Shown here in pieces: positions 1 to 51,039 of a DNA stretch of 64,000 bases. A model generated the notes under the pieces. It worked only from the letters and a program-made list of their open reading frames with translations, was not told the DNA's origin and did not search any database. Made by a program: the position numbers and the translations under genes. Position 1 is the first letter of the stretch. The number at the start of each line of letters is the position of its first letter. The DNA lies in contig CM052816.1 in NCBI GenBank assembly GCA_028534125.1, positions 62,374,001-62,438,000 on the forward strand. The letters are read 5' to 3'. This stretch comes from Lama glama (lineage: Eukaryota).

Positions 1-3000
1 GGTGAAAGAGAAGAACACACAAGTAATCTGCAAGGCAGGATAATAGAATTCACTCAATCAGAATAGCAAAAAGAAAAACATATTTAGAAAATGAGAACAG
101 TTTAAGGTACCTCCACAGCATTATCAAGCACACCAAAGTTTGCAATATGTGGGAACCTGAAGGAGAAGAGAGAGAAGCAGGTAAAAAAAAAAAAAAAGTA
201 TTTAATGAATTATGGCTGAAAACTTCACAAACTTGAAGAAGGAAAAATATATTAAGATATAAGAAGCACAGAGGCTCCCAAACAAGATGAATCCAAAAAG
301 AATAACAGCAAAACATATCATAATTAAAATGACAAAATTTTAAATTAAGGAGAGAATTGTAAAGACAAAACAGAAAAACAAAGCCATATAAATTGAATCC
401 ACATAAAGCTACTAGCTGATTTTTCAGAAGAAATTTTACAGACCAGAAGTGAGAAGCATGATGTATTCAAAGTGCTGAAAAGGAAAAAACTGAAACCTAG
501 AATACACTACCCAGCAAGATTATCATTTAGAATTGAAAGAGATAAAAGATTTTCCAGACAAGCAAAAATTAAGAGCTCATCAACAGTAAACCTACCCTAA
601 AAGAAATGTTAAAGGGTCTTACATAAGTAGAAAAGGACTAAAATAAGAAGAAGCTATAGAAAAAGAAAGATCTGACAAGTAAAGGCAAATGTATAGTAAA
701 GACTATAGGGCAACCACTTAAATAAACTAGTATAAAAGTTAAAACAAAAAATTGTAAAAGTGACTATAAATATGATAAACAGTGAAGGGATAAACATGAA
801 GATGTAAAACATGACATCAAAAACACAAAATGTAGGGGAGGGGAGTAAAATAAATGTAGATATTTTAAAATGTGTTTTACCTTAAATGACAACCAGTTTA
901 AAACAAGTAGATACAGTTATTACTCAACATATATGAACCCTCTGGTAACCACAAATCAAAAACCTACAATAAAAACACAAAAGCCAGACAGAAAGGAACA
1001 TATGCATACCACTAAAAAAATAATTAAACCACAAAGGAAGAGACTAAAAGAATAACACAGAACTACAAAAACAACCAAAAAACAAGTAACAAAATGGCAG
1101 TAAGTACATACTTAACAAAAACCACTTTAAATGTCAACAGACTAAATGCTCCAATCAAGGGGATGACTGGATAAAAATAACAAGAGCCACCTATATTTTG
1201 ACTACAAGAGACTTCAGAGCTACAGATACATACAAACTGAAAGTAAGAGGATGGAGAAAGATATTTCATTCAAATGGAAACAAGAAAGCAGAGGTAGCAA
1301 TACTCTTGTCAGACAAACTAGACCTTAAAACAAATTCTATAACAAAAAACAAAGAAAGGCTTTATATAATGATAAAGATATTAAAACAAGAAGAGGATAT
1401 AAAACTCATTAACATATATACACCTAATACAGAAGCATCTAAATATATAAAACAAATATTAACAGACATAGAGAAAGTGACAATAATACAATATTAGTAG
1501 GGGACTTTAACATTCCACTTACATAACTGGAAATATCATTCAAGCAGAAAATCAGTAAGGATAAAGCAGTCCTAAAGACATATTAGACTATTTGGACTTA
1601 ACAGGTATCTACAGGACTTTCCAACCAAAAACAGCAGAATACACATTCTTTTAATTTAAGTGCACATGGAACATTCTCCTGGATATATCATGTGCTAGAC
1701 TACAAAATAGTCTCAACAAATTCATGAGGACAGAAATTATATCAAGCAATTTTTTTTTCTGATCACACAATATGAAACCATAAATTAACTGCATGAAGGA
1801 AAAATGATAAAAAACCCCCACAAACTCATGGAGACTAAGCAATATGCTATTAAAAATCAATGAGTCAATAATGAAATCAAAGAGGAAATCAGAAAATATC
1901 TCAAGACAACTGAAAAAAAAAAAGAACATAACTTTACAAAATCCATAGCATTCAGCAAAATAAGCTGTAAGAGGGAAGCTTACAGCAATACAGGCCTACT
2001 TCAAGAAATAAGAAAACTCTCATATAAACAACTTACTCTATCATCTAAAATAATTAGAAAAAGAAGTATAAGCAAAGTACAGAGTCAGCAGAAAGAAGGA
2101 AATAATAAAGATCAATAAGAAAATAAACGAAACAAAGGCAAAAAATGGAAAAAAATCAATGAAACCAAGAGCTATTTTTTAAACATAAACAAAACTGATA
2201 AGCCGTTAGTCAGTCTCATCAAGAAAAAAAAAAAAGAGTACCCAAATAAAATAAAAAATGAAAGAGGATCAATAATATCCAATATCACAGAAACAGAAAA
2301 AAATCATAAGAGAATACTACAAACAATAATATGCTAACAAATTGGACAACTTGAAGAAATGGACAAAATTCTAGAAACACAACCCTCAAAGACTGAATCA
2401 GGAAGAAACAGACAATATGAACAGACAAATCACTAGCAGTAAACTTGAATTTGTAGCAAAAAAACAAAACAAAACAAAACTCCCAGAAAACAAAATTCCA
2501 GAACCGAATAGCTTCACAGGAAAATTCTAACAAACACATTAGTAAGAGCTAATACTTATCTTTCTCAAACTATTACAAAAATTTTGAAGAGGAGGGAACA
2601 CTCTCAAATTCATTCTACAAGGCCACAATTACCCTGATACCAAAACCAGACAAAAACATAACTAAAAATCAAATTCATCAAAGGCCAGTACCTCTGATGA
2701 ATACAGATGTAAAATCCTCAAAAAATATTAATAAATCAAATTCAGCAATACACAAAAAGGATCATACACCATGACCAAGCGGAATTTATTCCAGGAATGC
2801 AAGGGTGGTTCAATATCCACAGATAAATTAATGTGATACATCACATTACCAAAATGAAGGATGAAAATCACATGATCACCTCAATAAATGCAGAAAAAGC
2901 ATTTGACAAAATTCAATATCCATTCATGATAAAAATTCTCATCAAAACAGCTACAGAAGTAACATACCTCAACCTAATAAAGGTCATTTATTACAAACCC

Positions 3001-3145
3001 ACAGTTAAAATTATACTCAATGGTAAAAATCTTAAAGCTTTTCTTCCAAAATCAGGAACAAGACAAGGATGCTCACTTTCACCACTTCTATTTAACACAG
3101 TATTGGAAGTTCTACCCATAGCCATCAGACAAGAAAAAGGAACAT
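1..3145 (+). mobile_element. Degenerate LINE-1: ORF1 3' part, inter-ORF spacer, ORF2 endonuclease and start of RT; 3'-truncated
   Basis: ORF2-like peptides ([52 protein letters not shown]) with many frameshifts. Confidence 0.93.
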
Positions 3146-4439
3146 TTAGATCTGTGTAATTACTTAAGGTAAAGGCATTATCAATTTTGTATAATTTTAC
3201 TTCACACTTATTCATTTTTCTATTTTATTCTATTTGGAAATCACCTGAAATGACAGGAACACAAAGTTCCAATACTTAGTTATGTTTATATAAGTTGACT
3301 GAATATTTATATCCTTTTATCCTACTGAATGCTGACATTCTAGAAGGTAGAAGCAAATTAGAAGTATCAACCTTTTGAGCTACCTAAAATATATCTGCAT
3401 TAATAAAATGAAGAGAGCAGCAAACTGAAACTGAAACAGTAATTTGACACATAGTAGAGTGAGAAATAAAACACTGATCTATTTTGATATATGATTGAAG
3501 GTCATGTGCTTCTTTCATTCTAGTCTTTTTTCCTAAGACTATTTTATGACTATGTTTCTGTGAGTAATACAACCAGCAAAATCTGTGTCATCTAATTAAA
3601 ACTGTGATATTTTCATTACTGAAACTTTTCATTTCAATAAACCACTAATTTTCTCCTTGAGAAAGGGAACAAATAGGGAATAACTGTTCAATATGTGGGT
3701 TACTATTATAATTCAGAAGCATAAAAATTTTTCTTGTAAAAAGATAACCAAATATATATTTAGAATATGATCTGTGTATTATTTGAACATGATGAATCAA
3801 GTGATAAAATATTAAGTGGACACCTTCAAAATCTGTGAAAAATTCAAAATGATCCCTACGTGCAAATCCATGAACATGAAAGTTAGTGCCTTTGTGGAAA
3901 ATGTGTAATTTTTGTAGGTAAGCTTGAGTAAGTAGATCTTTAAAGAAGATCTATTCTCCCCAGCGCCTAAATCACACACTTGTAATAATACAAGTAGTCT
4001 TAACTCATTTAGTTTACTCAGAACAATGTAATGTAATCATTGTAGATGGTTCAGTGATTTATTACAAACCATAATACTTGGTCAATTATTTTATACTTTC
4101 ATGCATAACATCCCACAGAAACATATGGCAAACTTTTCATAATAGGTTCCTGTAGACTTTAAAGAGACATTTTCTTTTATTCATATTAAATAAGCCCAAG
4201 GTTAAGAAATGCAAACACAGTAGAATAAAATATTTGAACAGTATTGTTTAAAAATTTCATACAGCTACCGTGGCAGCTTTACTTTCTCAATTCAGAGGAA
4301 TAAACATTTTTCCCAGGATAAAATTTTTAAATTTCCTTAAAATGCTGTTATTTCAGCCTTTTCATGATTATACTAGCCTCTTAGACAAACTCGGTGGGCC
4401 AAAGGAATTCTAAAAGGAAAGTAGAAAATAGTTTGAAGT

Positions 4440-7400
4440 GAATTAAAAATATAATGTAAAAGTCATAGGGTGTAGCTAATGCCGTAACTAAAGGGAAATG
4501 TATAGAAGTAAATGCTTATTAGATGACAGAAAAAAAGGATTTCCAATCCATAACTTAAGTTTCTCCTATGAAAAATATTTTATAAGAGAAAGGAAAATGA
4601 AGTTAAAACAAGCAGAAGGAAGTAAATAATAAAAGAGCAGAAAACAATGACTTTGAAAACAGAAAATAATAGAGAAAGATAATTGAAACCAAAAGGTGTT
4701 TCTTTGAAAAGATCAATAAAATTAATAAACCTCTAGCAAAACCAAAAGAAAGAGAGAAGAAATTGTTACTATCAGGACTGAAAATGGGATATAATTACAG
4801 ACCCAACAGATATTAAAAGGATAATAAAGGAATACTGTGAACATGCTACATATTTTCACAATTTAGAAAACTTATTGAAAACAACTACCAAAATTACCCA
4901 ACATTAAACAGATAACCTGAATTGTCCTACACCTCTTAAAGAAACTGAATTCATAGTTAAATTCACCTCCAGTCCCAGATAGTTTCATTATCAAATATTT
5001 AAGAAAAAACAATATTAATATTTCAATATTTTCCACAAAACAGAAGAGGAAAGACCAATTCTTAACTAATTTTAAAAGGCCAGCACTACTGCGATATTAA
5101 AAACAGATGGTACAAAAACAGAGTCAACTTTAGGATAACAGCCTTCAAGTACAGAGGAAAACAAACAAATTAAAAAACTTCTCAAAAATATTGGTAAATA
5201 GTATCCAGTAATATATAGAAAGAAAAATACAACATAACAAAGTGTTTACTGCGGGTATGAAAGACTGGCTCAATATTTGATAATCACTCAATATTCACAT
5301 TAAAAATACATAATCATATTAACCAATAAAGTATTTGACAAAATTTACATCCATTCAAGGTAAAACTTTCAGCAAGCTAGGAATAGAAAAAAACTTCCTC
5401 AACCTGATAAAAGACATCTACAAAAAACCCACATCTAACATCATACTTATTGGTAAAAGACTCAATGCTTTCCTCCTAAAATCGGGAAGAAGACAATTTG
5501 TCTGCTCTTACACTCCTACTCAACGTTGTACTGGATGTTCTAGCTCATTCAATAACACAAATAAGAAAAAAATCATATTGGAAAGGAAAAAGTAAGGCTG
5601 TCTTTATTTGCAGACAACATAATCATCTAAAGAGAAAATACAGTAGAATCTCCGAAAATCTGCTATACTTGATAGGTGAGATCAGAAAGGTAGTAAGACA
5701 TAAGATTAACGTACAAAACTCAATTGTATTTCTATATATTATTAGAAATTATAATTTAATTGGAAATTAAAATTAAATAAAAATTAATACCATTCACCAA
5801 TAGTATAAAAATATGAATCCTAGGGATAAATCTGACAAAAGATGTCAAAGATCTGTAGTTATAAACATCACATGATACAAAGTCAAAACAAAGGTCAACT
5901 GTGTTTCTGTAAACTAGCAATATACAATTGTAAATCAAAATAATTTTTGCATTAACAATAACACAAAAAGTAAATACTTAGGTATAAATCTAACAAAACA
6001 TTCACAAGTTATGAATGTTGAAAATTGCAAAGTATTGCTAAAGGAAATCAAGGACCTAAATAAAAGGAGAGATATATCATGTTCATGGACTGGAAAAAAC
6101 CAACGCAGTAAATATTTCAGTCCTCCCCAAGTTGATTTATTTTTAGTAAAGATAAACAGGTTGATTCTAGATTTTATATGGAAAGGCAAAGGAACTAGAA
6201 TAAAACAATTTTGAAAAAGAAAAATAAAGTTGGAGAAATCACAATATCCTATTTTAATGACTTCCTATAAAGCTATAATAAAGAAGAAAAAGGGCTACTG
6301 GCAAAGGGAGATACACACAAAAATAAACTGAAAAGAAAGAACAGAGAGTCCAGAAATAGACCCACACGTATACAGCCAGTTGATTTTTGACAAAGCTGCA
6401 AAAGCTTCAATGGAGAAAGGGCAGTGTTTTCAATAAATGGTGTTAGAACAATCAAGCATCTCTATTCAAAACAAGGGACCTCGAACTAAATCTCATACTT
6501 AAAAAAAAAAAAACTCAAAATGAATCACAATTCTCAATACAAAACGTAAAACTATATAGCATTTAGAAGAAAACATAAGAAAAAATCTTCATAACCTAGG
6601 GTTAGGCAAAGAGTTCTTAGGACACCAAAAGCATAATCCATTAAAAAAAAAAAACTAAGAAATTGGATTTCATCAAAATTAAATGTTTCCTCTACAGGGA
6701 AAAAATATTGTGAAGAGAAGAAAAGGACAAACCTTCATAAACCACATACTCAATGGATGACTTATATCCAAAGTATATAGAGAACTTTCACAATTCAACA
6801 TGAAGAGCACAACGCAATTAAGAAAATGACTAAGATTTGAAAAGATACTTCACTAAACAACGTATACAAATGGCGAAATAAGCACATGATAAATGCTCAA
6901 CATCATTAGGAAAATACCATTAGAGAAATGTAAATTAAAACCACAATGTGATACCACTACACATCTATTAATGACAGTATTTTTAAAATGGAGACTACCA
7001 GGTGTTTGTGAGAATGCACAGCAAAAGAAATTCTCAAACATTGCTGTTTGGAATGAAAAATGGTAGAGTCATTCAGAAAAACAATTTGACAGTTACTTAT
7101 ACAGTTAAATATACACTTAACCATATGATCCAGCAATCCCACTTCTGGGTATTTACCCTAGAGAAATGAAAGTTACGTTCACACAAAAACCTATACACGA
7201 ATATTTATAACAGCTCTATTCATAATTGCCATAACCTGGAATAACCTAACTGTCCTCAAGAGGTAAATGGATAAACTGGTTCATTCATACAATGGAATAC
7301 TATTGAGCAATAAAAAAGAACAAACTATAGATATGTGCAACAACTTGGATGAATTTCACAGGTAATTATGCAGAGTAAAAGAAGCCAGTCTAAAAAAGTT

Positions 7401-7720
7401 ATATACTATATGATTCTAATTTTATAATATTATATTAATATTTTATTAAATTATCAAAAAGACAAACTAAAGTAATGGAGAAAAGGGCAGTGGTTTTTAG
7501 GGATTAGGGATTAGACAAGGGTGTGATTATAAAGATATAATCATGGCACAATTATAAAGGCACAAGGGAGATTTTTGGAGTGTTAGAACTGTTCTAATCC
7601 CCACTGTGGTGATTGTTACACATTCTCTACACACGTTTAAATCATAGAACTGTATGCCAAGAATAAATCAATTTTATTGCATGGTAATTAAAAAATTCAA
7701 AACCAAAATCAAAAAGACTA
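4440..7720 (+). mobile_element. Old L1 (L1M-type) ORF2 remnant plus 3' UTR; hosts the exon 5 candidate
   Basis: ORF2-like fragments (KLGIEKNFLNLIKDIYKKPT, LILDFIWKGKG), the catatgatccagcaatcccacttctgggtatttaccc motif, and an L1MB/MC-like 3' UTR. Confidence 0.9.
7122..7157 (-). CDS. RNF180: Candidate RNF180 exon 5 (36 nt, GKYPEVGLLDHM), derived from antisense L1; donor is atypical in this sequence
   Basis: Sequence reads ttcatttctctag|GGTAAATACCCAGAAGTGGGATTGCTGGATCATATG|gttaagt. It matches the recalled human ...[17 protein letters not shown]. Whether it is spliced in this species is uncertain. Confidence 0.6.
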
Positions 7721-9992
7721 TGTTGAATAAAAATGAGGTTTACTCAGCACTGTCTTTCCCCAAAGTAGGTGCTCAATTCACATTTGCTGAACAAGAACAT
7801 ATGAAAAACTGGCTGCATTTTCTGCTTCAACAGCAATCTCATTTATATCACTAAGTTTCAAAATTTTTGTAGCATGATTAACATTTTCTATCATGGTATC
7901 TGACACAGAAAGACATCTAGTTTACACACACACACAAAATCATTAAAAATGCCAATGAAAGTCAGAAATCTAGATACCTCAACCAATTATTTTAAACTTT
8001 AAAAAGATTATCATTAATAATGGGTAACTATATTTATACGCTTATCTGTCTCATTAAAAAAAGGTGCAGGATCTATTTTGAAGTCATTACCCAAAGGCAT
8101 GGTATACAAAACAGATATTTGATAAATGTTTATATAATCAGCTAATCTCTATTAAGCATGAAATGAGCTGAATAGCTATTAATTTACCTTAAATATCAAC
8201 TCTTTCTAGGATTTATCCTTTTCCTTGAATTAGCAAGACTGAATATTAAGAATTCTTCTTCCATCAGACTCAAATCATGGTGTGTACTCATATCGCTAAA
8301 TCATGTTATTTCTGTGCTGCTACATAGTTTTAGGTTTTCTTCTCTAGGGAGACACTGAGCATTTGCCTCTAACTCCCACGCAACCAGCCAAATCTATTAG
8401 GATCCCAACATGTCATTTCGTACGGACCTGTCACAGGTGTGACTAAGATTCATTTACTCTAGTCAATTAGTTAAGCAGATTGGTTAAATCACTTATGTGT
8501 GACCAAACAAAAGCAACTTCATTTAAAAAAACTAATTTTGGTCTTACTTTGTTCTAAACTGTGTAAAAAAGAGTGTTTCTATGCTAGAAAATGATTAAAA
8601 ATAGAGCTAAGGTTTTCAGAATTACCCAGCCTAAGAACTAAACACGTTTTGAAAATTGTAAAGATGTTATTTGCATATGTTTAAAGTACAGAGCAAGTAT
8701 AATTTTCAAACTTCTTTTAAATGTCTATTTGTTAGAGAATTATTTTAGAGCCTTCCACATTGTTTTTCAAGTATTCTGAATATTCACTTAACATATGAGA
8801 TCATCTCCAGTTTATCTACATTTAAGTCAAATTTTAAATAAAAATTTTGAACTTTATAGCTTCAATAAATTAAACTATAAGGTGTATTATAATGGTGATA
8901 AAATATCTTTATTTTTTACATCCTACATTTATGCTTTGATGTCACATTACACCATCACTTGCAAATAAACCAAACTGAAATGCTCCTGTCAGCAACCAGT
9001 CAAAAATATAATAAACATTTACTTATAATAATACTAACCAAAAGATTAAAAAAAAAAACCTAACCTGACTGAAGCCCTTAACGTAGGTTTTTTTTTTTTT
9101 AATTTTAGCCAGTCCATGATTAGGATCATAAACAATAATGAGTTTGCTTAACTAAGAATGAATTATGTCAAGTTGTGGTTTTCTATATTTTAGCTCTGAG
9201 GACATTGTTAATATTGAACATACTAATTAATAAGGACTGCTATCTATTATGAACAAGTAAATAATAAAGGCAATTTGGAAAAAAAAGTTTACATACAAAT
9301 ATGCCAGTCATCAAACTTCCAAACTGTCATGAGCACCTTCACTGGCTTTATGGGTTTCCTCAGTGCCTAATATTTACTCTCACTTCCTTCACTCACCCAC
9401 TCTTAACATATCATTATGGGTACAGGAGTTTAAACCACAGAGAAGCAACCTCTCCTACAAAATTACAGTTAAGGGTCAATTATCTTTTAGATAATTTTCA
9501 CAATTTAGCACAGTTAATCATATCTGCATCATGGTGGGCACATAATTAAACAAGGCTCCTTGAAAGTATCAATTTAAACTTAAGGTAATGGAAATGAAAG
9601 AATCTGTCACGAGATTGTATTTACTTAGAGAAATTTTGTTTTGATTTAACCTGAAAAAAAAAACCACTGAAAAACAATCCTAACATGAATAAATTTGAAA
9701 TGTGTATGACAATCAAGTCTCAATATCATACGATTAATGTTCCTATAAAATATTAGCAAAATTGGGAAAAACTTCACAAAAGGGCAGTTTCTAAACACGT
9801 GGAAGCACAGAGACATGGTGATAAATGTCAATTATAATAGAGCTACATGATTATTAGGTTCACCTCGGGAGCAGTGTCATTTCAAAATCATTCAAACTAT
9901 GATTTCATGATACAGGTATTCAAAGTTTGCTGCTCTCCCCAAAGCCCAACATTTATAATACTGAATTATTAGTAAACTCTTAAAAAAATTAC

Positions 9993-10952
9993 CTGCTTCT
10001 GCAGCCATCTCTCATGCCTTCGTTGTTTCCGCCTCAGATTCTTCAGCTTGCTCCTTTCTTTCTTACTGAGCCTCTGATTAATGGCACCCAAAGAAAAATT
10101 GCCCGAGTGCAGGAAGTCCAGAGGAGAGAGGTGCTCCTCCTGCTCTGGGGCCTCCAGCATGCTCCTGCCAGCTGAGGGCAGGTCCATCAGGAAAGTCAGG
10201 CTGTTAGAACTAGCATGGTCAGAGTACACTGCAGAAGCTTCTAGACCACAATGAAATTCTCCTCCTCTTTGTGTCTGGGTCTCACGGGGAGCCACTGAAA
10301 ATCTTTGCAGCAGAATATTAGGATCAAAACTGGATGAAATTTGAAAGGAACAGTTATTTTTGCTAGATTCTAAAGGCAAGCCTGAAAGGTCAGTAGGCTG
10401 TGTTTCATTTAGCCTGGAATAGGCAGTAGTCTTACTATGTATTCCATATAAGGAGGGTAATAAAGTCAGTTTCTCACTGATGTTCAGATCCAAACTATGT
10501 GATTTTCTATGAAAAGCTCTCGTAGTGCATCTGCCAGTCACAAGCTGTGGAACAAAAAGCTGGTATTTTGGATCTGACGCTTTGAACAGCAGTTTTTCGT
10601 TCTTCATCTCAAAATACGTTGATGGTGCCTCTAGGCAGAGTGCTTCTGTTAATCTTCCAGGACCATTATTACTTTGGGCCATGTTTAAAAGCCCGTGATT
10701 TCTGTTTTTGGAGGCGCCACCTGTCAGCAGAGTTTCCTTGTCACAACCTGACTGAACTCTAGGATGTGACAAGTATTTCAGCGATGGTCTCATTAGTCGG
10801 CCTGCCCGCGTGGGCTGATAATCGGTCCGGCTCTTGGAGAGATGTACAGCTGCAAGCTGGCCACAGGAACATTTTGGAGTGCTGACAAAATTAAAGCCCC
10901 CTAAACGGGCCCCACAGAAAGGGCAATTCAGTTTTCCAACTGTCCACTGGGC
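9993..10952 (-). CDS. RNF180: RNF180 coding exon 4 (960 nt): [32 protein letters not shown] ... [20 protein letters not shown]
   Basis: 320 open codons that contain most of track ORF 9969..10793. Acceptor is tttcctttattacctgtag|GCC and donor is CAG|GTAATT. The CPFC/CSC motifs continue the N-terminal Cys-rich domain, and the exon ends in a basic coiled-coil stretch. Confidence 0.95.
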
Positions 10953-12546: not shown

Positions 12547-12642
12547 TTTTTGTATTAGGCAGTTTATCCATTCTGGAAGAGCTTCTACATTTATGTGCCA
12601 CACATGACAAATATTTTGATCATCAGCTGAATCATGTCTATC
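12547..12642 (-). CDS. RNF180: RNF180 coding exon 3 (96 nt): [32 protein letters not shown]
   Basis: Translated by hand; it is not in the ORF track. Acceptor is catgtaacag|GAT and donor is AAA|GTAAGT, phase 0/0. It resembles the recalled human [32 protein letters not shown]. Confidence 0.93.
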
Positions 12643-12657
12643 CTGTTACATGAAACA

Positions 12658-25374: not shown

Positions 25375-25509
25375 CTTAATCACTTGATTCTCAAGATATT
25401 TCATGAAACAACCAGAACTTCCTATACATTTTCTACATTTCCAACAACGAAGAATACTTATTCCTTCTTGATTATGATTTTTAGTTATCAATTCTTTACT
25501 TCTCTTCAT
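25375..25509 (-). CDS. RNF180: RNF180 coding exon 2 (first coding exon, 135 nt): [45 protein letters not shown]
   Basis: The translation matches the recalled RNF180 N-terminus. The acceptor ttttcccacag sits directly before the ATG, and the donor AAG|GTGAGT (25374-25369) is phase 0. Confidence 0.95.
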
Positions 25510-37119: not shown

Positions 37120-38370
37120 ATATGATCCCTATGAAATTACCCAGGACATTTTTCACAGAACTAGAACAAATAATCCTAAAATTTATATGGACCCACAAAA
37201 GACCCAGAACTGCCAAAGCAATATTGAAGAAAAAGAATGAAGCTGTCCCAGACTTCAGACAATACCACAGAGCTACAGTAATCAAAACAGCCTGGTATTA
37301 GTACAAAAACAGCCATATGGGTCAATGAAACAGGATAGATAGCCCAGAAATAAACCCACAAACTTTTGGTCAATTAATCTTTGACAAAGGAGGCAAGATC
37401 ATACAATGGAGTAAAAGCCTCTTCAGCAAACGGTGTTGGGATAACTGGACAGCCACATGTAAATTAATGAAGTTAGAACACTCCCTCACACCATACACAA
37501 AAATAAACTCAAAATAGCTTAAAGACTTAAACATAAGACAGGACACTGTAAGCCTCTTAGAAGAAAACATAGGCAAAACATTATCTGACATAAATCTCAG
37601 CAATGTTCTCCTAGGGCAGTCTACCCAAGTAATAGAAATAAAAGCAAAAATAAATAAACAGGACCTAATTAAACTTCTAAGGTTTTGCAAAGCAAAGGAA
37701 ACTGTAAGCAAAACAAAATGACAACCTACAAAATGGGAGAAAATATCTGCAGAAGTTGAGACTGACATGGGCTTAATTTCCAAAATATACAAACAGCTCA
37801 TACAACTTTATATTAAAAGAAAAACAAACAACCCTATCCAAAAATGGGCAGGGGACCTAAACAAGCAATTCTCCAATGAAGACATACAAATGGCCAAAAG
37901 GTACACGAAAAAATGCTCAATATCACTAATTATCAGAGAAATGCAAATCAAAACTATCATGAGGTACCACCTCACACCAGTCAGAATGACCATCATTAAA
38001 AAGTCCACAAAGGATAAATGCTGGAGGTGTGGAGAAAAGACAACCCTCCTACGCTGTTGGTGGGAATGCAGTTTGGTGCAGTCATCATGGAAAACAATAC
38101 GGAGATTCCTTAAAAAACTAAAGATAGACTTACTGTATGATCCAGCAATACCACTCCTGGGCATATATCTAAAGGGAACTCTAATTCAAAAAGATACATG
38201 CACCCCAATGTTCACAGCAGCACTGTATACAATAGCCAAGATATGGAAACAACCTAAATGTCCACTGACAGATGAATGGATAAAGAAGATATGATGTGTG
38301 TGTGTGTGTATATACTTATACATACATACACACACACATACATACACACGCACACACATACATACACTTG

Positions 38371-38410
<40 letters not shown>

Positions 38411-38855
38411 GGACTACTACTCAGCCATAAAAAATAAAATAAAATAATGCCATTTGCTGCAACATGGATGGACCTGGAGACTGTCATTCTAAGAGAAGTA
38501 AGACAGAAGGAGAAAGAAAAATACCATATGATATCACTTACATGTGAAATTTTAAAAAATGAGACAAATGAACTTATCTAGAAAACAGAAACAGACTCAC
38601 AGATAAGAAACAAACTTATGCTTACGGGAAAGTTGGGGAGGGAAGAGGATGGAATGGGATAAATCAGGAGTTCGAGATTTGCAGATACTAATTACTATAT
38701 ATAAAATAGATAAACAAGTTTATACTGTATAGCACAAGAAACTATATTCAATACCTTGTAGTAATCTATAATGAAAAAGAATATGACAATGAATATATGT
38801 ATAAGTACACCAGAAATTGGTACACTGCAAACTGACTATATTTCAATAAAAAAGT
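37120..38855 (+). mobile_element. Relatively young 5'-truncated L1 (ORF2 C-terminus plus 3' UTR)
   Basis: Track ORFs 37107-37301 and 37767-38294 ([36 protein letters not shown]); ends gactatatttcaataaaaaa. Confidence 0.95.
38295..38408. repeat. Compound (TG)n/(CA)n/(CATA)n microsatellite within the L1
   Basis: Directly visible in the sequence. Confidence 0.9.
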
Positions 38856-49395: not shown

Positions 49396-49995
49396 ACCCC
49401 CCTCCTCCGACCCTAAGGACCCTCTCCCCACCCCCACCCGGCTTTTCAGACCTTACCCGTGACTTCTGCCTAACAACCAGCAAGTCCAAACACTCCGGAC
49501 CCAGAGCTGCAACAAAAGCAGCTGAAACGCCGATACCAAAATGGACCAGACAAAAGAAAGTGTGGGAACCGGCGGCGGACCGGGGTGTGTGCGGCCCTCC
49601 CCACAAGCTCTGAGAGAGACCGGACGCACCTCCTCAACTCCCAGACGGAGGGCCGCCAGCCCCGGCCACGCGGCGCCCCCGCCGGCGCCGCCCGCCGCAC
49701 GCCCCCAGGCCGCCGGCGCCGCCCAGTGTAATTCCACCCTCGCCCGGGTCGCGCCCCGAGGCCGGCGGCCGCCGCCGCCGCCGCCGGCCTCAGGTGCGAA
49801 AGTTAAACCGGCGCTGCAGCACCTGAGGCCGGGGCGGGGAGCGGCTGGGCAGCCCGGGCAACCCGGGCAGCCCGCGGCGCGCCCACCGTCGCGCGAGCCT
49901 GGGGCCGAGCCGCCGCGGCCGGGCAGGGCCGGCCCCACGGCAGAGCCCTCGGACGGCCGCGCCCCGCCGGGCCCCGAGCCGCCGCCGGCACTCAC

Positions 49996-50250
49996 CTGCG
50001 ACCGCGTCCGGGAGCCTCCCGCTCCGTGCCCCGTCCCGGGGCGCCCGGCCGCCCGCAGCCCGCGGCTCTGAGGACTCGCGGCGGCGGCGGTGCCGGTTCG
50101 GCGAGACGGGAAGCGACAGGAGCCAAACCCCGCGGAAAGCGCTCGAGCCGCGCCGGCAGCCCGGAGCCGGCGGCCTGGGTCTCCGCGCCCGGGCGCTCCC
50201 CACCGCCTCCCGCTCTGCGCACCCACCGCTGCGGTTCCGGCCCGAGCCGC
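49996..50250 (-). other. RNF180: RNF180 non-coding exon 1 (5' end approximate)
   Basis: Lies inside the CpG island just downstream of GC boxes. It has a strong donor CAG|GTGAGT at 49995-49990 and no ATG on the minus strand. Confidence 0.75.
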
Positions 50251-50261
50251 GCGTGGGCGGC

Positions 50262-50310
50262 GCCCCGCCCCGCCCCCGAGCAGCCCCGCCCCGCCCCCGA
50301 GCAGCCCCGC
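50262..50310. repeat. 21-bp tandem repeat (gccccgccccgcccccgagca x2.3) made of GC boxes
   Basis: Exact copies at 50262-50282 and 50283-50303, plus a partial third copy. Confidence 0.9.
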
Positions 50311-51039
50311 ACGCGGCACCCGCCGCGCAGGCCCGGCCGGACCGTGGGAAAGTTGTTCGCTGGTCGTCCCTTTACTGGAGAAGCAGAACTTGTCAGTCCC
50401 TTCGTCTTCCTCCCGTGGCCTCACCCAGCCCCTCCGGTAGTTCTGAGCTCCGAACCCACCTGCTGGGCTCATTACCTGCTCAAATCAATTGGCGTCCCAT
50501 GACCCACCTCCAAGCCTAGAATCTTCTAAGGCAGCACCAGTGCCTGAGTTTACTTTTCCCTTTTGATGTCACTGTCCTTGTTGCTTATCTTCTTGTGCCT
50601 AAGGTTCCATCTAAGTGCAACTGAGTTAACCACTAAGGGGTTCTGGAGCGCACTGTTGACAAATTATAGTTGGTAGGTGAGTTGAAAACCAGAGGTAAAT
50701 CAAAAGTGCTTATTCAGGGAGCTGGGAGGCACCTCCAAGTAAATGTGGACTTGTCAGTACGTTGCTGGGCTCACAGCAATGAAAACAGGTGATCAAAATG
50801 CTGGAAATAAGGTCAGGAGTATTTAAAAAGCACGTTTTATTAATTGGCTTGAGAAAGGGAAAGGAAGCTGGGTGGGAGATCTCAAAAGACTGTACAGCTT
50901 TCTCTGTTAGATATAGAAATTTCTACTTGCCTGAAGTGGCTTATTTGAAGTTTTGTCCCAAGCTTAAAGCTGTATGCAATGATTTCCCACCCGAAAATTC
51001 TATGAAATCAGTAACAATAACACGAAAACTACAGACCTT

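Follow-up and report, generated by a model that had tools for sequence, protein, structure and literature searches.

Exon 5 of RNF180 in the llama window

A 64,000-nucleotide (nt) stretch of the Lama glama genome (C1:62374001-62438000, hereafter the window), taken from an assembly of 2.35 Gb in 1,072,352 contigs, contains part of the ubiquitin ligase gene RNF180 on its minus strand. Exon 5 of this gene is the subject of the present analysis. The exon appears to be the orthologue of a cassette exon of placental mammals that was born from an antisense L1 element, and its 5' splice site (donor) carries an extra T. On balance, we favor the reading that this altered donor is a quantitative splicing variant and not a mark of gene loss, its effect on splicing being predicted from the sequence.

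Exon 5 is located at 7122..7157 on the minus strand. It has a length of 36 nt, is in phase 0 and encodes GKYPEVGLLDHM, a peptide with counterparts in orthologous proteins. Around it the minus strand reads, in the order upstream flank, exon and downstream flank, ttcatttctctag, GGTAAATACCCAGAAGTGGGATTGCTGGATCATATG and gttaagtgtatatttaactgtataag, with ...tttctctag directly upstream and gttaagt directly downstream. The 3' splice site occupies 7158..7180 on the minus strand, where the AG at 7159-7158 follows a pyrimidine-rich run (13 pyrimidines in 20 positions) and the stretch cgtaac represents a possible branch site; this acceptor region consists wholly of L1 antisense sequence. The donor heptamer GTTAAGT is found at 7115..7121 on the same strand and contains a doubled T at 7120/7119, which is taken here as it stands in the assembly sequence. 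The 3' end of exon 4 reads CAG AAG CAG/gtaatt, corresponding to WLQKQ with the boundary at 9987/9986 in phase 0. Exon 5 therefore continues in phase with exon 4, as the earlier note on this DNA had stated. Between exons 4 and 6 (approximately 77 kb, with 600 N), exon 5 was the sole minus-strand match to its peptide pattern. One other cassette-like stretch in this interval showed 77% identity over 43 nt and had no AG.

Conservation of exon 5 among placental mammals

RNF180 proteins from three placental superorders were found to contain a 12-residue insert between WLQKQ and TLNNEM. In Afrotheria it was present in elephant shrews, dugong, golden mole, tenrec, aardvark and elephant, in Euarchontoglires in loris, galago, gelada, tarsier, hare and many rodents, and in Laurasiatheria in dog, seals, panda, pangolins, bats, deer, cattle, sheep and whales. 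The proteins of opossum, turtles, crocodile and birds pass directly from WLQKQ to TLN with no insert. This distribution indicates that exon 5 is a conserved, placental-specific cassette exon of RNF180, with its predicted orthologue at 7157-7122, and it bears out, at the level of peptides from three superorders, the earlier proposal of a conserved coding exon. The xenarthran RNF180 proteins that were fetched were only forms without the insert.

In the fetched RNF180 set, 32 distinct insert variants were counted, two of which, for instance, occurred 12 and 6 times, and 47 proteins had no insert. The window peptide matched the insert of horseshoe bat and golden mole at 11 of 12 residues, the sole difference being a change from Gly to Glu. 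The Asp of GLLDHM was common to most orthologues; in L1 relatives of the exon, Gly or Asp was carried about equally often at this place. A degenerate 38-nt pattern designed for orthologous exon DNA gave 0 matches in the metagenome and prokaryote contig collections.

A Tasmanian devil protein (P0163) reads WLQKQ-LLDHL-TLNDD. Sharing of the exon with marsupials was considered on the basis of this protein and rejected, as the five residues belong to an automatic model and the other forms from devil and opossum have no insert. LLDHL does resemble the end of the placental exon, and it may be a homology artefact or hint at a marsupial L1 remnant. Cheetah, lion, elephant seal and ferret were represented by exon-5-less forms only among the members listed (set of P0257, P0260, P0269, P0005 and P0278), and the fishing cat had an 11-residue version of exon 5, GKYSVRLLDRM. 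These carnivore forms suggest independent weakening or loss of the exon.

L1 origin of exon 5

Read on the plus strand, exon 5 corresponds to a motif of L1 open reading frame 2 (ORF2), the YDPAIPLL region, and the same motif was found in the ORF2 of a younger L1 at 37722-38294. The exon and both of its splice sites lie inside an old L1 copy, antisense to that L1. The decayed copy was traced by tblastn over 5362..7245 on the plus strand, in opposite orientation to RNF180, and is interrupted by stops and frame switches. A remnant of the reverse transcriptase (RT) domain was detected at 5362-5517 (E value 5e-12) using as query a neighbouring L1 RT fragment that matches Pfam RVT_1, and the C-terminal part of ORF2 was detected collinearly on the plus strand at 6761-7245 (E value 6.6e-13) using the ORF2 fragment of the younger L1. 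The decayed fragments 5323-5592 and 5918-6211 gave no Pfam match. An A-rich end of the old L1 was noticed by eye near 7690-7735.

Searches with 240-300 nt around the exon returned 3653 and 2548 candidate relatives in the genome on a first look, of which 40 were scored in each case; identity to the best relatives was 72-82%, a level that points to an old, decayed L1 copy. Taken together, the plus-strand ORF2 motif, the collinear tblastn matches and the L1 relatives support well the view, put forward earlier, that exon 5 is an exonised antisense segment of L1 ORF2.

To compare splice signals, 29 of the relatives (L020-L048), which were the best matches to the query and not a random sample, were aligned to the cassette. 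An AG at the acceptor position was present in 10 of the 29 and a GT at the donor position in 26. Both were present in nine, and six relatives combined both signals with an open stretch divisible by 3. Several L1 copies read TTTCTCTAG/GGTAAATACC...CATATG/GTAAGT. The L1 family thus already possessed the splice signals and the open stretch, and exonisation would have required little or no change.

Derived state of the extra T

Three lines of comparison bear on the extra T in the donor. Firstly, the donor was one base shorter, typically GTAAGT, in 21 of the 29 L1 relatives, and eight of them read exactly GGTAAGT. The arrangement of the window, in which 36 nt are followed by GTTAAGT, was observed in a single relative (L021), and in three others GTTAAGT aligned after a shorter exon part. 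Secondly, the L1 sense frame switches at approximately 7100-7124, so that ...QLNIHLT (to about 7120) and YDPAIPLL are not read in one frame; the loss of a single base would bring them together and match the younger L1. Thirdly, two primate proteins read past the donor. The short isoform X2 of galago (P0296) ends in GLLDHV-VSTYLTI, and tarsier continues GLLNHV-VSICLIILETVKLFSRMTVPL... with the tail VSICLIILETVKLF. The window matches these tails only in the frame from 7117, that is, with one donor base omitted, where it reads SVYLTV-stop-VTVKLFF-stop-MTLPFF.

The shorter relatives, the break in the L1 frame and the primate tails together argue that the extra T is derived, and an insertion after the split from the primates is well supported as far as these alignments go. 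The ancestral donor would almost certainly have been ATG/GTAAGT. Two statements of the earlier note were in agreement with this result, namely that the donor contains one base too many and that omission of one T gives VSVYLTV-stop, of which the window frame from 7117 reads SVYLTV-stop. That note also gave the continuation of human RNF180 and the end of its short isoform, and the proteins of gelada (P0125) and galago (P0296) fit them.

In the pygmy sperm whale, isoform X7 (P0251) ends in VYVLSF after GLLDHM, which fits read-through of neither GTAAGT nor GTTAAGT. This tail is ambiguous between read-through of a changed donor and another exon, and it hints that the donor region may also have changed in whales, here in the toothed whales.

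Predicted strength of the donor

Duplex energies with the 5' end of U1 were calculated with ViennaRNA, the pseudouridines of U1 being treated as U. The window site gave -7.9 kcal/mol; the shorter form reached -11.7 kcal/mol and the exon-4 donor CAG/GUAAUU -8.3 kcal/mol. The minimum-energy duplex of the window site was GGU(U)AAGUGU, which contains 9 base pairs and has the second U bulged, and the computed duplex with one bulged U was more stable than that in the canonical register. Among the 10 GT sites in 7175-7030 the exon-5 donor was the strongest, the next one within or after the exon being TAA/GTGTAT with -5.2 kcal/mol. The earlier note had described the donor as damaged. Since the bulged duplex is about as stable as that of the exon-4 donor and the site is the best GT nearby, this functional claim was probably overstated.

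Registers with a one-nucleotide bulge, among them that with the bulge at +3 (or +2), have been validated experimentally, and the +2/+3 class comprised 68 predicted human donors, 54 of which remained after curation (Table 3 in Tan et al., 2016; PMC4856993). The exon-5 donor resembles this class: GU-(U)-AAGU is an available pairing for /GUUAAGU, and the computed duplex has just this shape. The published class is defined by position and not by sequence, and GUUAAG does not occur in the text of that paper (PMC4856993). Use of this register at exon 5 is a prediction. For 5' splice sites with bulged U1 pairing, Tan and colleagues refer to work of Roca et al. from 2012.

Skipping, read-through and alternative explanations

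Skipping of exon 5 is in frame. It yields a protein of 580 instead of 592 residues in which RING finger and membrane anchor are both retained. Forms shorter by 12 residues are annotated in cats, ferret, elephant seal, shrew, whales, bats and rodents, and spliced ORFs from transcript assemblies occur with exon 5 (P0160) and without it (P0007, P0026). The presence of both forms among annotated and transcript-derived sequences shows that exon 5 is an alternative cassette in nature, and the skipped form has the ancestral architecture. If the donor were unused, an open frame of 54 codons would follow at 6957..7121 on the minus strand, with its stop at 6959-6957, and its product would have neither RING finger nor membrane anchor. 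Translation confirmed the tail of about 54 residues with a stop at 6957 that had been described before. A search of the protein collection with the 66-residue ORF (candidates of 36-116 residues) found no counterpart of this tail, which is evidence neither for nor against it. As to the two outcomes foreseen in the earlier note, skipping and read-through, the stakes are lower than that note implied, the skipped form being ancestral and widely annotated and a short isoform with neither RING nor TM segment occurring naturally in human too (PMC13366374).

The course of events that we favor is the following. An L1 would have inserted in antisense orientation into an intron of RNF180 before the placental radiation. 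Its reverse strand would have supplied the pyrimidine tract with AG, the open 36 nt and ATG/GTAAGT, so that the segment could be spliced in directly. A later insertion of T would have turned GTAAGT into GTTAAGT. U1 would still bind with the extra U bulged and cleavage would take place at ATG/GT; the weaker recognition would shift the balance to skipping, which gives an ancestral-type protein without the 12 residues.

Several points weigh against such a quantitative variant. U1 pairing is the first step only, and pairing with U6 at +4 to +6 (AAG for AGU) is likely worse. The window exon has Glu (GKYPEV) in place of the Gly (GKYPGV) carried by all but one of the 31 remaining exon-5 variants, and this change could mean that constraint was relaxed after splicing had been lost. 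Many of the orthologous proteins are automatic predictions and possibly driven by homology. The choice of the L1 relatives by likeness to the window was counted here as well, although such a bias runs against the result that the T is derived and not in its favor.

The most serious competitor, which we regard as a real but clearly less probable possibility, holds that the T insertion killed the donor, so that exon 5 is always skipped, the pre-placental architecture has been regained and the 36 nt decay as intron. Read by eye, the canonical register pairs with U1 only at -1G, +1G, +2U and +4A, and the predicted duplex falls from -11.7 to -7.9 kcal/mol; the uncommon Gly-to-Glu change agrees with decay, and the exon-less forms that alone represent cheetah, lion, elephant seal and ferret among the members listed suggest that loss may be common and tolerated. 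Set against this are the intact frame, acceptor AG and GT, a bulged-register duplex equal to that of the exon-4 donor, and the use in human of donors of the same shape (Tan et al., 2016; PMC4856993).

It is improbable that failure of the donor mainly leads to a read-through transcript that ends in the intron, consisting of exons 1-5 plus 54 residues, with a fall in active ligase. The open frame of 54 codons would allow such a product and the annotated galago and tarsier forms do pass the donor. Human isoform 2 of RNF180 (RINES), which has no RING finger and no transmembrane (TM) segment and was inactive in assays, is moreover a natural product of the same kind as the proposed read-through form (PMC13366374). 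The closest AATAAA or ATTAAA, however, lies at least 863 nt downstream of the donor, exons 6-8 are open and conserved, and skipping is in frame and requires no new signal; that no databank protein has the tail is weak evidence in the same direction. The human isoform 2 presumably ends by reading past exon 5, and the galago and tarsier proteins are in line with this. An assembly or sequencing error with GTAAGT as the true donor is very improbable, for although the assembly is fragmented into its 1,072,352 contigs, a run of two T is not a typical site of indel errors, and GTTAAGT after 36 nt in L021, together with its alignment in three more relatives, indicates that the form arises naturally.

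RNF180 locus and neighbouring features

Outside exon 5, RNF180 was identified as follows, all coding exons in the window being on the minus strand. The first coding exon (25381..25509, 3' end approximate) and exon 3 (12547..12645, ends approximate) were located by tblastn. The large exon 4 (9987..10952) was assigned from an ORF at 9969-10952, from tblastn and from protein matches. The best protein matches of exon 4 were RNF180 proteins, with 93% identity in baleen whales, 92% in sea lion and 91% in dog; the top identity among 308 fetched proteins was 95% over a fragment of 103 residues and 93% over the full exon. No RNF180 protein of the llama itself was seen among the cluster members listed. 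Of 24 sequencing runs listed for exon 4, 23 contain part of it; eight of the runs share one organism label across three studies, a second label matched about 0.57 of the words, and six runs are recorded as RNA. Exons 6 (C1:62307653-62307916), 7 (62296802-62296960) and 8 (62261744-62261953) fall beyond the window; none of them has an internal stop, and they are 83-94% identical to those of dog. By these data RNF180 is otherwise intact, and nothing among them suggests its loss.

A distance of 2.8 kb separates exon 5 from exon 4 upstream of it, and intron 5, about 73 kb long, leads on to exon 6. The intron-5 section C1:62307001-62374000 contains 600 N in 67 kb (assembly gaps or withheld stretches), and a small exon-like element there would escape detection. 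RNF180/Rines is described as a tail-anchored ligase of the endoplasmic reticulum that binds Zic2 via a basic coiled-coil domain (PMC4021871). The 12 residues of exon 5 are placed between the basic stretch that closes exon 4 and the RING finger, and we infer that this stretch corresponds to the published coiled-coil domain.

A GC-rich island at 49400-50520 (GC content 0.47-0.49, compared to about 0.33 around it) displayed long open stretches in each of the six reading frames. Most likely this island represents the CpG-island promoter of RNF180 together with a non-coding first exon, the open frames being a by-product of composition. Further L1 copies were also present. A second L1 (1090-3159, plus strand) lies upstream of the old L1 in the same orientation and has an RVT_1 match at 2827-3156 (E value 4e-12). 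The much younger L1 at 37722-38294 (plus strand) is a 3' part with an open ORF2 C-terminus of 190 residues and a weak match to Pfam DUF7101 (E value 5e-4). The reverse strand of this younger L1 has an open frame of 125 residues at 37808-38185, and a (TG)n-type microsatellite follows the element near 38254-38577.

Relation to known exonised repeats

The exonised Alu, MIR and L1 elements described by Sela et al. (2007; PMC2394776) are similar to RNF180 exon 5, in that an intronic repeat provides both splice sites of a short in-frame cassette. The exons in that study are mostly young, seldom included and species-restricted, whereas RNF180 exon 5 is part of the reference protein of 592 residues and occurs in three superorders. 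The main text and one supplement of that study do not name RNF180.

Splice sites on the antisense strand of L1 are functional, and 43 of 52 mouse exonisation events were antisense (Zemojtel et al., 2007; PMC2176070). The most-used sites in that report lie in the 5' untranslated region and ORF1 of young mouse L1s, with a legend that also places sites near +4100 to +5600. The RNF180 cassette differs in that it lies in the C-terminal region of ORF2 of an old L1 family and has been fixed as coding sequence. A literature search did not find a link between RNF180 and exonisation, and the reviews that name RNF180 carry titles on other subjects. Since any annotation of repeats in human RNF180 would reveal the overlap with L1, the origin of exon 5 is probably unremarked rather than unknown.

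A wider reading can be offered tentatively. The old L1 family may have carried a complete, open exon of 36 nt on its reverse strand, one copy of which was captured before the placental radiation as a lasting coding insert in an E3 ligase. The llama genome may now show either this exon, about 100 million years old, at the first step of its death, or a natural case in which a single insertion converted a donor to the bulged register. Other genes may have taken up this cassette on repeated occasions.

As an instance of repeat exonisation, RNF180 exon 5 is ordinary but neat. It provides a clean example of a repeat that donated a finished exon, with acceptor, open frame and perfect donor pre-existing in the L1 family; placental mammals have kept this exon in a ubiquitin ligase that is itself conserved. 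The insertion in the llama donor represents a natural test of whether an alternative exon tolerates a one-base bulge in its pairing with U1. Its practical weight would be small, as it concerns 12 linker residues, and skipping would give the ancestral form that many mammals also make.

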